A DNA stretch of 5,757 nt from a virus. Positions 1,489 through 5,256 of this stretch are shown here, in pieces. The stretch is from IMG/VR virus record IMGVR_UViG_3300029830_000112; one strand, 5' to 3'. The notes under the pieces are model-generated. The model saw only the letters and a list, made by a program, of their open reading frames with translations. It had not been told where the DNA came from and made no database searches. The position numbers were made by a program, and so were the translations under genes. Numbering within the stretch: the first letter of the stretch is position 1; the number at the start of each line of letters is the position of its first letter.

Positions 1489-3177
1489 TTACAGTTTATA
1501 CAGGCCCGGCACGCTATACAGCGGCATTCTTCGTGTGGTTTTGTTTGCCACTCGCACGGCTCCGAAAAATTGCGGTTCGCTCTGCACAATCAATGTTCTT
1601 GCAATCTCCGCTTTGCCCTCTGCCATCCATTCCTGGCTGAGCGTTGGTACTTTACTGTATATATCAGCGTAGTGCCAGAAGTCCAGTGTACCGGTCGCGT
1701 TGCTTCTCATGAGGCCGGACACCCGGTTTGGCTTCATTCGGTAGTCTGCCCACGCTTCTTGGTAACCGAATGTTTCTTCATCGGTTGCGTCACCGGTCAG
1801 CATGATTTCTTTCTTCTTTACCGGCTGTTCCCCTAAATTTGCGAACTGCGGGACATAGTAGTCCAGCCGGTCGCGTCGGCTCCAGAAGCGTTCAAGGCCC
1901 TGTTGGTAGCTTCTATTGTGCCGTACACATGCGACGCCAATGACAAAGCCGTGTTCTTCAAAGCTTTTAGTAAAAGAGCTCTCTCTGATAGGTGTTACGG
2001 ACACCGCACCTGTTTCACCGATGGGTGTATCGTTTTCCGTCTGTTGGCCGCTGGTCTGCACAATCTGGTTTACGTTGACTTGATATCTGCCGCCTCCCAG
2101 ATATTCCGGGATTTGTACGGTCTTGTCACTGATTGTTACATCCCATAATGCGCGTACTTGTTCGCGGTACCTGCTGCCACCTCTAGTCAGTGCTTCATAG
2201 TACTGTTGTACTGCTACGGCATTTCTCAATTCGTTGATGGTTGCCGCTGTTACGGCACTTAAGTCTGCCGTCATCCGTTCGCCTAATTTTAGTGACCCAT
2301 TGAATGTTCCCAGGACTGCGCGTGCTTTTTCGTTTACGTTTTCATAGTCTTGGGTCATTATTTCGTTTCCTGTGCGGTATAGATATCCTCCTGCTCCTTC
2401 TTTCCAGATTCCGGTATTTTCCAGGTCTGCGATTACTAACGGATTGTCTGTTCCGTCTGCCCAGTAAATCGGTGCATTGCCCGACATTGGTAGGTTAATT
2501 TCCGGCCCACGTTGTGGGTAAGGCATACAGGATGTGAAGTAGTCGTGGTATTTATTTACCGGAAGTAGATTTCCACCCAGTACTGCGTTTTTCAGGTCTT
2601 TTTCCAGCGTTTCTGTTGCTTCTTCGTCGAAATTGTAAGTCACGTCTTTGCTATCGTTTTTCAGAACTGCCGCGTTGTCTACGTTTTCGTCTCTAAAAAA
2701 CTCATTCCAGATTTTTACATATGCTCGGATTGGTAATGCATTGACGGTGAATGGTTTATTGATTTTCGTAGGCACACCCATGTAGTCCAAAATTGACTTT
2801 TCGTTTGGTGCAGGCTTTTCAGTTGTGCCGTTGATTTTGATTTGTGGTACTTTATATGCTATTGTTGGCATCCATGGTGTTTCCTCAACTTCACCCATGA
2901 AATTTTTAAATTTGTCCCACAAGATTCTATTTGGCGTGTAGAAGTAATAGAAGTCAATAAATGCATCATCCATGACCGGATATTTCGGTGTGCTCATGCG
3001 AATGATTGCTGTCGTGTCTACCTGGAAAGTGTCTCCCGGTAATACCTCGTCCACGAAAAATGGAATCAGTTTTCCGGAATCAAATGTTGTTAGAATAGTC
3101 TGGTCGCGATTAAATCTTGTTCGGCTTGCGTGCATTTCCGGGATTTGAAGGAAATGTCTTTCATTATTTCTGTTCAT
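1489..3177 (-). CDS. VP1: Major capsid protein (Microviridae VP1 / F-like jelly-roll capsid protein), 562 aa.
   Basis: Size is typical of gokushovirus VP1. The N-terminus MNRNNERHFLQIPEMHASRTRFNRDQ...VLPGDTFQVDTTAIIRMSTP resembles the conserved F/VP1 N-terminal beta-strand region (compare phiX174 F ...PVIAGDSFEMD...). Strong SD AGAGGAA upstream. It is the longest ORF and lies on the strand shared by all genes. Confidence 0.85.
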   Translation of the reverse strand: MNRNNERHFLQIPEMHASRTRFNRDQTILTTFDSGKLIPFFVDEVLPGDTFQVDTTAIIRMSTPKYPVMDDAFIDFYYFYTPNRILWDKFKNFMGEVEETPWMPTIAYKVPQIKINGTTEKPAPNEKSILDYMGVPTKINKPFTVNALPIRAYVKIWNEFFRDENVDNAAVLKNDSKDVTYNFDEEATETLEKDLKNAVLGGNLLPVNKYHDYFTSCMPYPQRGPEINLPMSGNAPIYWADGTDNPLVIADLENTGIWKEGAGGYLYRTGNEIMTQDYENVNEKARAVLGTFNGSLKLGERMTADLSAVTAATINELRNAVAVQQYYEALTRGGSRYREQVRALWDVTISDKTVQIPEYLGGGRYQVNVNQIVQTSGQQTENDTPIGETGAVSVTPIRESSFTKSFEEHGFVIGVACVRHNRSYQQGLERFWSRRDRLDYYVPQFANLGEQPVKKKEIMLTGDATDEETFGYQEAWADYRMKPNRVSGLMRSNATGTLDFWHYADIYSKVPTLSQEWMAEGKAEIARTLIVQSEPQFFGAVRVANKTTRRMPLYSVPGLYKL

Positions 3178-4674: not shown

Positions 4675-4705
4675 GGCGATTCACCTTTTTTTGTATTCTA
4701 TCGGT

Positions 4706-4734
4706 ATTGTATCATTCAATCTCCGAATTTTCAA
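4706..4734 (-). promoter_or_regulatory. Sigma70-like promoter for the peptidase/accessory-gene module: -35 TTGAAA (4729-4734), 17-nt spacer, -10 TACAAT (4706-4711), read on the minus strand.
   Basis: TTGAAA-N17-TACAAT (5/6 and 5/6 matches to consensus, optimal spacing). It lies about 30 nt upstream of the peptidase ATG, within the intergenic region. Confidence 0.45.
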
Positions 4735-4781
4735 GGGTTGCGTTAGCAACTTTTGAAATTTCGGTGATTTCGCCGTTAGGC

Positions 4782-4946
4782 GTTTTCAACAGTTTCCACA
4801 TAGTTTTCAACTTTTCCACATTGTTAAACTTTATCACAATAGAGTATTTTAACAATTCAACAAGTTTTTAACATTTCTTTTAACAATAGTTTCTTTCATA
4901 AAGAAACGTTATTGTGTTATTTTTTAATGGTTTTCAACTTTTCAAC
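4782..4946. repeat. AT-rich iteron region. It holds a 21-bp tandem direct repeat (4782-4802 gttttcaacagtttccacata; 4803-4823 gttttcaacttttccacattg). It holds three same-orientation DnaA-box-like 9-mers (4792-4800 GTTTCCACA, 4812-4820 TTTTCCACA, 4830-4838 TTTATCACA). It holds TTTTCAAC x4 (4783, 4804, 4931, 4939) and TTTTAACA x3 (4847, 4866, 4878). It also holds an 8-bp-stem hairpin gtttctttcataaagaaac (4889-4907).
   Basis: Repeats read directly from the sequence. TTTTCCACA fits the relaxed DnaA box consensus TTWTNCACA exactly, and the other two have one mismatch each. Confidence 0.6.
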
Positions 4947-4980
4947 TACCTCTACTACTACGACTACAACAAGTTAATAA

Positions 4981-5032
4981 ATATATGCGCGTGCGTGCGT
5001 GCGCGTCTACGTGCGCGTATGCGCGCGCATAC
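4981..5032. repeat. Alternating purine-pyrimidine (Z-DNA-prone) tract: atatatgcgcgtgcgtgcgtgcgcgt-ct-acgtgcgcgtatgcgcgcgcatac, including the perfect 16-bp palindrome gtatgcgcgcgcatac (5017-5032).
   Basis: 26 nt of perfect Pu/Py alternation, a 2-nt break, then 24 nt of perfect alternation. (GCGT)n-like composition. The palindrome was verified by reverse complement. Confidence 0.8.
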
Positions 5033-5036
5033 CTTT

Positions 5037-5155
5037 GAGCGCTTTAGCGCGAACCGGCGTCCGCGCGATTTCAGCGCGGTCAGCGGCTGATCAGTCAGCC
5101 GCGACGCCGTGCCAATAGGGGTCCGGGGACGCGAGCGGAACGCGGCCCCGGGATA
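5037..5155. other. GC-rich island (about 70% GC by eye versus about 43% for the genome) made of consecutive stem-loops. These are gcgc-ttta-gcgc (5042-5053); ccgcgc-gatttca-gcgcgg (5061-5079); gcggctga-tcag-tcagccgc (5083-5102, with the embedded palindrome ctgatcag); and the compound hairpin tccgggg-a-cgcg-agcggaa-cgcg-g-ccccgga (5122-5152). Candidate complementary-strand (ssDNA to dsDNA) origin or another structured cis element.
   Basis: Inverted repeats verified by reverse complementation. The compositional contrast with flanking AT-rich DNA is obvious by eye. Confidence 0.5.
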
Positions 5156-5207
5156 TTGTTTAATTTCAATCACTGCCTAGACTGATACATGGAGCCTTTA
5201 AACGGCT

Positions 5208-5242
5208 CTAGCCCAGTACCTACTTGATAGGTACTGGGCTAG
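5208..5242. other. Perfect 15-bp hairpin ctagcccagtaccta-cttga-taggtactgggctag, 15 nt downstream of the VP4 stop. Candidate rolling-circle origin (Rep nick site in the loop) or transcript-end structure.
   Basis: Perfect 15/15 inverted repeat with a 5-nt loop. A second smaller hairpin gagcc-tttaaac-ggctc (5192-5208) abuts it. The loop plus flank on the displayed strand reads ACTTGATA, the same 8-mer as the phiX174 origin core caACTTGATAttaata. Confidence 0.5.
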
Positions 5243-5256
5243 GTGACACCAAAATC

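Follow-up and report, generated by a model that had tools for sequence, protein, structure and literature searches.

A putative DnaA-box and DnaA-trio element of host-origin type in the intergenic region of a gokushovirus genome

Why does the genome of a small single-stranded DNA (ssDNA) phage carry, in its only large intergenic region, an array of repeats that resemble DnaA boxes? In the gut of humans and animals, few phages are as abundant and persistent as the Microviridae; most gut gokushoviruses have no assigned host, and their replication is assumed to follow that of phiX174, with a nick by the replication initiator (Rep), rolling circle synthesis and no DnaA. The question is raised by the IMG/VR virus record IMGVR_UViG_3300029830_000112, a stretch of 5,757 nucleotides (hereafter the window, with positions counted from its first letter), which covers the whole of a circular gokushovirus (Microviridae) genome: 5,680 bp, plus a terminal redundancy of 77 bp. 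Every gene lies on the minus strand of the window, and the sole large intergenic region (4675-5256), between the stop codon of the gene for the replication initiator VP4 and the promoter of a peptidase M15 gene, contains an AT-rich element (22% GC) of ~205 bp at 4782-4986, or ~4% of the 5.7-kb genome. We put the probability that this element is a module of the host-origin type at about 0.9. It is best read as a putative phage-borne copy or mimic of a dnaA-dnaN (incC) type origin, comprising about ten TTTTCAACA-type boxes in the same orientation and a basal unwinding system (BUS), and its function is probably, at a lower level of confidence, DnaA-dependent unwinding, where both DnaA binding and unwinding are predicted from the sequence.

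The BUS of the bacterial oriC consists of two DnaA boxes, a gap, DnaA-trios and an unwinding element (PMC8287927, PMC6669920, PMC7561715), and was described for the incC region of B. subtilis with DnaA-box#6, DnaA-box#7 and the DnaA-trios (Richardson 2016, 2019; Pelliciari 2021; PMC8287927, PMC6669920). Written as box, box, gap and trios, the published examples read TTATCCACA / AATCCACA / GGCC / CTA CTA TTA CTT CTA CTA for B. subtilis, TTATCCACC / AATCCACA / GCAC / CTA CTA CTA TTA CTA for S. aureus, TTTTCCACA / GTATCCACA / GGCC / CTA CTA CTG ... for D. radiodurans, and TTATTAACA / TATCAACA / AGCC / (CTA)6 for C. botulinum (PMC8287927 and tables), and the trios of C. difficile read CAC CTA CTA CTA TTA CTA CTA (PMC8287927, PMC6669920, PMC7561715). 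Positions 4931-4972 of the window read TTTTCAACT / TTTCAACT / ACCT / CTA CTA CTA CGA CTA CAA CAA, followed by the AT-rich GTTAATAAATATAT, and the boxes TTATTAACA and TATCAACA of C. botulinum carry the same C-to-A change as those of the window.

The trio-proximal tandem boxes of the window (TTTTCAACT at 4931-4939 and again at 4939-4947, plus strand, with an 8-bp offset) are the counterparts of DnaA-box#6 and DnaA-box#7 of B. subtilis, and their strand and sense are as in the published order of TTATCCACA and then CTA. They are followed on the plus strand by a 4-nt gap, ACCT (4948-4951), in the position of the bacterial 'GC-rich' gap, which reads GCCT, CCCC, GCCC or TACT in relatives, and then by the nearly invariant DnaA-trio array (4952-4966, minus strand), where the plus strand reads CTA CTA CTA CGA CTA and therefore the minus (coding) strand carries the 3'-GAT-5' trios, this being the strand bound by DnaA at bacterial origins. 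A trio array is defined by three or more successive trios that have A in the middle on the bound strand, with the consensus 3'-GAT-5'; the triplets CTA CTA CTA at 4952-4960 give GAT GAT GAT on the minus strand, and the fifth triplet, CTA, fits as well. A conserved, phage-specific extension, CAA CAA GTT (4967-4975, plus strand), comes next, and is not found in host origins, which go on with CTA CTA. The AT-rich stretch GTTAATAAATATAT (4973-4986) takes the position of the DNA unwinding element and is short (14 bp) and bounded by a GC-rich island (65-73% GC) that begins at 4987. The published rules place the better box within 16 bp of the first trio, typically at 10-13 bp, with a gap of ~4 nt, and allow up to 2 mismatches in the better box and up to 4 in its partner, relative to TTATCCACA or to a species-specific motif (PMC8287927). 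The spacer of the window is 12 (4940-4951), and this value and the gap length of ACCT agree with the entries for B. subtilis and S. aureus. None of the strings in the published table of predicted unwinding systems was identical to a phage box pair.

An earlier reading of the window made from its letters alone (the sequence-only reading) had noticed the repeats at 4782-4946, and every motif that it listed was found where it had placed it. Two 21-bp units, GTTTTCAAC-AGTTTCCACA-TA at 4782-4802 and GTTTTCAAC-TTTTCCACA-TTG at 4803-4823, were detected by Tandem Repeats Finder (TRF) as 2.1 copies of period 20 with 87% matches at 4782-4825, and they correspond to four DnaA-type boxes on the plus strand (4783-4820): TTTTCAACA at 4783-4791, GTTTCCACA at 4792-4800, TTTTCAACT at 4804-4812 and TTTTCCACA at 4812-4820. 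An inter-box segment (4821-4845) contains an inverted weak box, TTTAACA (4822-4828, minus strand), and TTTATCACA (4830-4838), and is followed by four more plus-strand boxes at 4846-4885, namely ATTTTAACA (4846-4854), AATTCAACA (4854-4862), TTTTTAACA (4865-4873) and CTTTTAACA (4877-4885), where most relatives read TTTCAACA and where the three copies of TTTTAACA in the window end at 4854, 4873 and 4885. A 45-bp AT-rich spacer with a small inverted repeat inside (4886-4930) separates this array from the trio-proximal boxes, and a spacer of about this length is found at the equivalent place in host origins. The two tandem copies of TTTTCAAC at 4931-4946 (TRF period 8, 100% matches) are the trio-proximal pair, because strand relation, pair length, gap, spacer and trios all match the BUS, and the 21-bp units together with the TTTTAACA copies are the upstream box array.

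For the generalised box TTHMACW, 11 plus-strand copies were counted in 4782-4947, in comparison to a mean of 2.1 +/- 1.2 and a maximum of 7 in local dinucleotide-preserving shuffles, none of which reached 11 in 20,000; the whole window has 17 matches, of which 12 are inside this 166-bp stretch. For TTWTNCACA, the relaxed E. coli consensus, no enrichment was observed over the whole window with up to one mismatch allowed (12 matches in comparison to 12.6 expected), and 5 of the 12 cluster at 4783-4873, all on the plus strand. The box consensus of the phage family is (T)TTTCAACA, with TTTTCAACA as the consensus box. The box TTTTCCACA, which had been singled out as an exact match to TTWTNCACA, is present in the window and is a minority variant in the family, and the proposed third box, TTTATCACA, is not conserved as a box, since most relatives read TTTAGCACA. 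The regular helical phasing that had also been proposed was not observed: the box spacings are irregular (8, 9, 10, 11, 12 and 24 bp, mostly 8-12), with no clean helical phase and no dominant 10.5-bp power.

To look for the same arrangement elsewhere, a collection of 185,579 bacterial and archaeal species, each represented by one genome, was scanned with the pattern TTCAAC N1-2 TTTCMAC N4-5 CTACTACTAC. The results showed 112 loci, of which 111 were bacterial, mostly from Oscillospiraceae, Ruminococcus, Acutalibacteraceae and other Clostridia of gut and rumen, together with Selenomonas isolates and scattered other phyla. The pattern lay between dnaA and dnaN in 72 loci, beside one of the two genes with the other side beyond the end of the locus in 22, and beside dnaN only in 7, so that at least 101 of the 111 adjoin dnaA and/or dnaN; for one locus (L139), DnaA and DnaN were confirmed by Pfam, with recF and gyrB downstream. 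The density of TTTCAACA was 0.7-1.9 per 100 bp in the dnaA-dnaN spacer in comparison to ~0.03 elsewhere, and in the 300 bp upstream of the trio-proximal boxes of the matching loci TTTTCAACA occurred 232 times and TTATCCACA 9 times. Because of this peak and the 232:9 ratio, and thus by position and enrichment at origins, TTTTCAACA appears to be the origin (DnaA) box of these Clostridia. No report of TTTTCAACA as a divergent origin-box consensus was found in the literature searched, which returned primer noise only. The bacterial loci (L130-L241) share a uniform string, GTTTTCAACA-(G)TTTCAACA-CCCC-(CTA)5, and have origins of TTTTCAACA rather than TTATCCACA boxes.

The phage element is equivalent to these chromosomal origins. 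The base frequencies of the boxes are nearly identical in phage and host at every free position, the boxes number 10.3 per phage element in comparison to 7.3 per host locus, and the whole element (4782-4989) is collinear with host dnaA-dnaN spacers over ~190-220 bp at 64-67% identity (E ~1e-15). The DnaA-box identity predicted by the sequence-only reading is therefore supported, beyond what the letters alone could give, with the boxes placed within a complete oriC-type module that matches the dnaA-dnaN origins of gut Clostridia. Extended near-identity between a phage and a host origin, as a mark of recent transfer, was not found. Integration into a host chromosome was considered separately and rejected: the one match among the 112 with microvirus genes was a free 5.7-kb contig, and no integrated copies were seen.

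The element is conserved under constraint. The AT-rich block is matched, beginning exactly at 4782/4783, by 43 GenBank records of gokushoviruses from the gut of humans, pigs, monkeys and dogs; for many of these records it is the only matching part of the intergenic region, and in some there is no match at the DNA level to the remaining genome. An alignment of eleven elements shows repeated TTTYCAACA boxes, with CTACTACTAC-NN-CTACAACAAGT (4952-4974) invariant and the next two bases nearly so. In 80 genomes chosen by VP1 similarity only (72-89% identity), the element was present in 71, and at least 4 of the remaining 9 are contigs that break inside the box array. Column conservation over 62 aligned elements (61 from the VP1-selected set and the window) was 92% for the boxes in comparison to 77% between them (p = 5e-13), 95% for the trio block and 68% for the flanks; it tracks the box positions, on the CAACA core, and not the T-runs between boxes, and the trio-proximal boxes of the 61 elements are >90% conserved. 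The block CAA CAA (G/A)TT is kept across clades whose VP4 is 36-41% identical to that of the window (loci L011-L129), and variants without AAGTT exist. The extent given by the sequence-only reading was too short, since the element runs past 4946 and the most conserved part (4948-4975), consisting of the gap, the CTA triplets and CAACAAGTT, had gone unnoted.

The element was found in ~192 distinct near-complete gokushovirus genomes, in both orientations and at two genomic positions. In the near clade (VP4 >60% identical to that of the window), 114 genomes have the arrangement of the window, downstream of VP4 with the trio TAG strand as the coding strand, and 4 have the element inverted at the same site, an arrangement also seen directly in GenBank record MG945388. 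In the far clade (VP4 <=60%), 43 genomes have the arrangement of the window, and in 31, with VP1 and VP4 roughly 36-48% identical, the element is ~95 nt upstream of VP4 on the other strand. The trio strand is therefore the coding strand in 157 of the 192 genomes, and the element is on the other strand in 35. Folding of 4775-4985 as ssDNA gave -13.6 kcal/mol in comparison to -12.9 +/- 2.8 in shuffles (z = -0.25), with no box in a stem. At the four-fold degenerate sites of VP1, A is ~47% and T ~12% in the near clade, and the same holds for either orientation of the element; as a test for a flip of the packaged strand, this base skew is weak evidence, since inverted close relatives are few and the skew is without known cause. 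The extreme A-richness and T-poverty of the coding-strand four-fold sites is a feature of the VP1 genes of the clade of the window, and the virion strand of phiX174 is T-rich. Taken together, the three arrangements, the unchanged strand bias and the unstructured ssDNA favour a function on duplex DNA.

A mechanism can be proposed on this basis. After conversion of the phage ssDNA to the duplex replicative form (RF), host DnaA would bind the boxes, and the two trio-proximal boxes would direct an oligomer of ATP-DnaA to the GAT trios of the window minus strand. The adjacent AT-rich DNA would open, with the flanking GC island limiting the spread of opening, and the open complex would start replication of the RF, most simply through loading of the host helicase as at oriC, leading to theta-type amplification or maintenance of the RF. 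The open complex might also, or instead, expose ssDNA to the phage HUH nuclease VP4. We infer DnaA binding, unwinding and every downstream step from the architecture.

Several points weigh against a host-type origin acted on by DnaA. The known replication mode of microviruses is the Rep-dependent rolling circle, and to our knowledge no microvirus has been reported to need DnaA. Both proximal boxes of the window have 3 mismatches to TTATCCACA, which may not be the motif of the host, and they therefore fall outside the published limit of 2 unless a host-type motif is taken as the standard; they have 1 mismatch to TTTTCAACA, the dominant motif of the matching bacterial origins, and in many relatives the second box is TTTTCCACA or TTTTTCACA, with 1-2 mismatches to TTATCCACA and within the rule. 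What suggests that TTTTCAACA is the DnaA box in these bacteria is its position and its enrichment, and the host set is biased towards this box type because the selection pattern already contained TTCAAC. The rule of a central A in each trio is violated by the fourth triplet, CGA, and by the CAA CAA triplets, the AT-rich stretch of only ~14 bp is far shorter than in host origins, and the phage-specific CAACAAGTT block has no explanation under such a reading. The box TGTTGAAAA is one base from TGTCGAA, the Spo0A box, and for this reason the distal boxes may be bound by another origin-binding protein. Literature searches on Microviridae and gokushoviruses returned nothing linking them with DnaA boxes, DnaA-trios or oriC-like elements, and those on the gokushovirus replication origin, oriC-like elements in ssDNA phages and CAACTTG in Microviridae returned nothing relevant.

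The alternative that survives best, which we nevertheless consider unlikely, is that the region is the phage's own rolling-circle origin, with the repeats as VP4 (Rep) iterons, as had been suggested for the repeats, and the conserved block as the nick site. The block CTACAACAAGTTA is indeed phage-specific and highly conserved, its coding-strand sequence TAACTTG/TTGTAG resembles the phiX174 site CAACTTG/ATATTAATAAC, and on its complement is AACTTG, which in phiX174 makes up the six bases 5' of the nick. It is also the AT-rich end of the element that faces the VP4 gene in 188 of the 192 genomes, whether the element is downstream or upstream of it, which may be chance because only three or four independent arrangements underlie the count. 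Against these points, bacterial dnaA-dnaN origins, which have no VP4, show the same boxes, gap and trios, and a single element type occurs with VP4 proteins only 36-41% identical to that of the window, so the iterons do not co-vary with their own Rep; one consensus is shared across divergent VP4 proteins and VP4-less bacterial origins. Several lineages carry CTACAACAAATAAT and hence lack AACTTG though the element is kept, no site in the genome matches the 30-nt phiX origin at more than 17 of 30 positions, the element inverts with the synonymous-site strand bias unchanged, and a second phiX-like candidate is located elsewhere, in a hairpin at 5208-5242 (CTACTTGATAG). A phiX-like nick site was accordingly rejected as the main explanation, since the likeness is limited to six bases, which some lineages have lost. 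A VP4 origin can coexist with a host-type origin if the nick site lies within the DnaA-opened region.

It is also conceivable, at rather low probability, that the element is a DnaA sink or sensor, with the multi-copy RF titrating DnaA and thereby blocking host initiation, or with DnaA occupancy regulating phage transcription, and with no unwinding for replication. The number of boxes (~10-12 per genome) would suit such a role, DnaA is also a transcription factor, and ~50 bp separate the array from the -35 hexamer of a downstream promoter, that of the peptidase M15 gene, which is of sigma-70 type (TTGAAA, 17-nt spacer, TG-n-TACAAT; 4706-4734, minus strand) and is a neighbour of the element and not part of it. 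The box-gap-trio geometry and the trios are needless for titration or regulation, yet they are the most conserved part, and the element moves and inverts relative to promoters.

A shade less probable still is the single-strand initiation signal (ssiA, or ABC-primosome site) offered by the sequence-only reading, in which DnaA reads a hairpin box on the viral ssDNA and recruits helicase and primase for complementary-strand synthesis. The DnaA-type boxes do adjoin a strongly structured region, as the GC island and adjoining hairpins (4980-5256) have z = -5.8 as ssDNA, and the coding strand is the trio strand that DnaA would bind as ssDNA in 157 of the 192 genomes. At ssiA sites (R6K, pBR322-type DnaA-box hairpins), however, the box is needed in a stable hairpin stem, and the box region here is no more structured than its shuffles, with no box placed in a stem by the predicted hairpins; nearly all boxes are direct repeats and therefore cannot pair with each other. 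The element is on the other strand in 35 of the 192 genomes with the strand bias unchanged, and the GC island is not a constant neighbour of the element among relatives. Initiation by primase at the CTA repeats was a further candidate, as Firmicute primases prefer 5'-CTA, and was rejected because the coding strand carries TAG, not CTA, in 157 of the 192 genomes.

Very improbable is the remaining proposal of the sequence-only reading, that phased T/A-tracts bend the DNA as an upstream activating element of the peptidase M15 promoter. The region is AT-rich, a good sigma-70 promoter is 50-215 bp away with the repeats upstream of it, and the mean of the 8-12 bp box spacings is close to one helical turn; there is, however, no dominant 10.5-bp periodicity, conservation is on the CAACA box core and not on T-runs alone, the element is inverted relative to the promoter in close relatives (L008, L015, L064, L097) and upstream of a different gene, VP4, in another clade, and the same sequence occurs at bacterial origins. 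That the element is a functionless passenger fragment of host origin DNA gained by recombination, which its collinearity with host origins at 64-67% identity would allow, is hardly credible for a sequence that takes up ~4% of so small a genome, is carried by almost the entire clade and also by clades whose VP1/VP4 are only 36-48% identical to those of the window, has boxes and trios selectively conserved against drifting inter-box spacers, and carries a conserved phage-specific extension.

Returning to the reading as a host-type origin, similar modules were observed in other viruses. A distant microvirus lineage (L353, L355, L388, L395; ~4.7 kb), whose longest matches to the window are 31-34% identical in VP1 and 27-31% in VP4, carries its own box-trio module, with two canonical TTATCCACA boxes, then TTTCCACA-TTTCCACA-ATGC-(CTA)5-6 and AT-rich DNA, which suggests an independent capture matched to a different host. 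Box-box-gap-(CTA)4-AT modules were also seen in ~30 larger viral contigs (roughly 9-120 kb; loci L342-L403), with no dnaA or dnaN in the fetched DNA around the modules. Near one of them (L385, pattern at 1642-1662 of the reverse-complemented locus) are a Cas4-like nuclease, a DNA methylase and a clamp-like open reading frame (ORF), and near another (L347, 9333-9354) RecT-like, exonuclease-like and GroEL-like ORFs, all named by eye and not by family search; by these names, both contigs carry replication and recombination genes of the dsDNA-phage kind. At the end of a 23.6-kb contig classed as viral (L316), the host-type string TTTTCAAC-TTTTCAAC-TCGAC-(CTA)4 is followed by AT-rich DNA, with no dnaA or dnaN in the 2.3 kb covered. 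Double-stranded DNA (dsDNA) phages may also carry modules of host-origin type. Four non-microvirus matches to a 22-mer in viral contigs were discarded as chance, being Thr/Ser-rich coding repeats.

A more tentative proposal, which we hold to be possible and would not yet favour, is that gut gokushoviruses and at least one distant microvirus lineage captured a complete host-type origin, and that their RF is replicated or maintained as a DnaA-dependent 'minichromosome', coupled to the initiation potential of the host, beside rolling circle replication by VP4. If so, long-term plasmid-like carriage without integration would follow, and the box variant and the box-trio string would serve as a host tag, pointing here to Oscillospiraceae or Ruminococcaceae-like Clostridia. 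On this view, the box-trio modules of dsDNA phage contigs suggest that the capture of origins could be a general and so far unrecognised strategy of phages. More generally, the element offers a sequence-based host prediction (Clostridia with TTTTCAACA boxes at their own origins), and leads to the prediction that the life cycle of this ssDNA phage includes a DnaA-dependent step, which could explain stable non-integrated persistence. It would imply that the unit of box and trio unwinding, so far described for chromosomes only, is portable, and such elements, at ~200 bp, might serve as natural minimal origins in gut anaerobes that are hard to manipulate. In addition, a putative divergent DnaA-box consensus, TTTTCAACA, is obtained for a large group of gut Clostridia.

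The other features of the genome are as follows. All on the minus strand are the genes for peptidase M15 (4674-4282), an ORF5-like and a scaffold-like protein, the major capsid protein VP1 (3177-1489), a Gly/Ser-rich VP2-like protein and VP4, the last of which spans the window ends. A search for homologues of the peptidase M15, made for a clue to the host, returned phage (microvirus-sized) contigs for all of the 120 best matches. Between clades (loci L011-L129 in comparison to the window), the peptidase is 44-69% identical, far above the 36-48% of VP1 and VP4, which suggests that it may be exchanged or constrained as a host-specific module, as the origin element is. Two small palindromes with a GTTA centre, GTTGC-GTTA-GCAAC (4737-4750) and CGCC-GTTA-GGCG (4771-4782), are located in the interval from the box array to the peptidase promoter and are possible operators, of which the second is kept in the closest relative only.

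The GC-rich island (4987-5150; 65-73% GC in a genome of 45% GC) contains several hairpins and begins with alternating purine-pyrimidine runs (GCGCGTGCGTGCGTGCGCG). Relatives keep a GC-rich block and not its sequence, and in genomes with the inverted element an alternating purine-pyrimidine tract is on the box side instead. The island is possibly a complementary-strand origin, an unwinding barrier or Z-DNA, and an Rfam scan of the whole window gave only sub-threshold miRNA-like matches on this palindromic island and no known RNA. Just after the VP4 stop codon, the hairpin at 5208-5242 has a perfect 15-bp stem and a 5-nt loop, and its plus-strand loop region, CTACTTGATAG, is identical at 9 of 10 positions to the phiX174 nick region CAACTTGATA, the match being on the non-coding strand. 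Another gokushovirus, Chlamydia phage Chp2 (locus L312), has an intergenic hairpin with TCTACTTGATCT in the loop (2812-3009), and both hairpins are candidate VP4 nick sites. The repeat array of Chp2 differs in kind from that of the window, consisting of A-tract units (TGTGCAAAAAA, TGTGCAAAAAA, TGCCCAAAAAAA, GGGCCAAAAA, TTGCCCCCAAAA) roughly 10-13 bp apart at 2812-2880.

Among known systems, the element can be compared with the origins of gut Clostridia and Selenomonas, with which it shares the box consensus, the string of box pair, gap and trios, and the layout of an array followed by a ~45-bp spacer and a BUS. In the host origins, (CTA)5 runs into 30-60 bp of AT-rich DNA and one inverted box usually precedes the spacer, and the phage element differs in having more boxes, the CAACAAGTT block and a degenerate fourth triplet. 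With the bacterial BUS in general it has in common a tandem pair in the same orientation (9+8 = 17 nt), a 4-nt gap, a spacer of 12, AT-rich DNA, further boxes upstream, and three or more 3'-GAT-5' trios carried by the strand complementary to the TTATCCACA-sense boxes. It differs in its boxes (TTTTCAAC(A/T) instead of TTATCCACA), in the degenerate fourth triplet, in CAA CAA GTT after the trios, in an AT-rich stretch that abuts a GC island, and in its setting, which is a 5.7-kb ssDNA phage, between VP4 and a peptidase gene and not beside dnaA and dnaN; it is therefore an origin-type module and not a chromosomal oriC. In comparison to the viral-strand origin of phiX174 (CAACTTG/ATATTAATAACACTATAGACCAC), the likeness is AACTTG in the complement of the block, the remaining 30-mer being unmatched. 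With ssiA sites the element shares DnaA boxes on a replicon that has an ssDNA stage, and it differs in that the box region has no special ssDNA structure and has trios and origin geometry. Plasmid and dsDNA-phage origins (P1 oriR, pSC101, F, RK2) combine few DnaA boxes with iterons for the replicon's own initiator, and we know of none described with a box-trio unwinding module; the likeness is that a mobile replicon would recruit host DnaA through origin boxes, and the difference is that the phage module is entirely of the host-origin type, with a rolling-circle HUH nuclease as the phage's own initiator. What is new here is thus the setting of an origin unwinding system, itself known, together with its phage-specific modifications.

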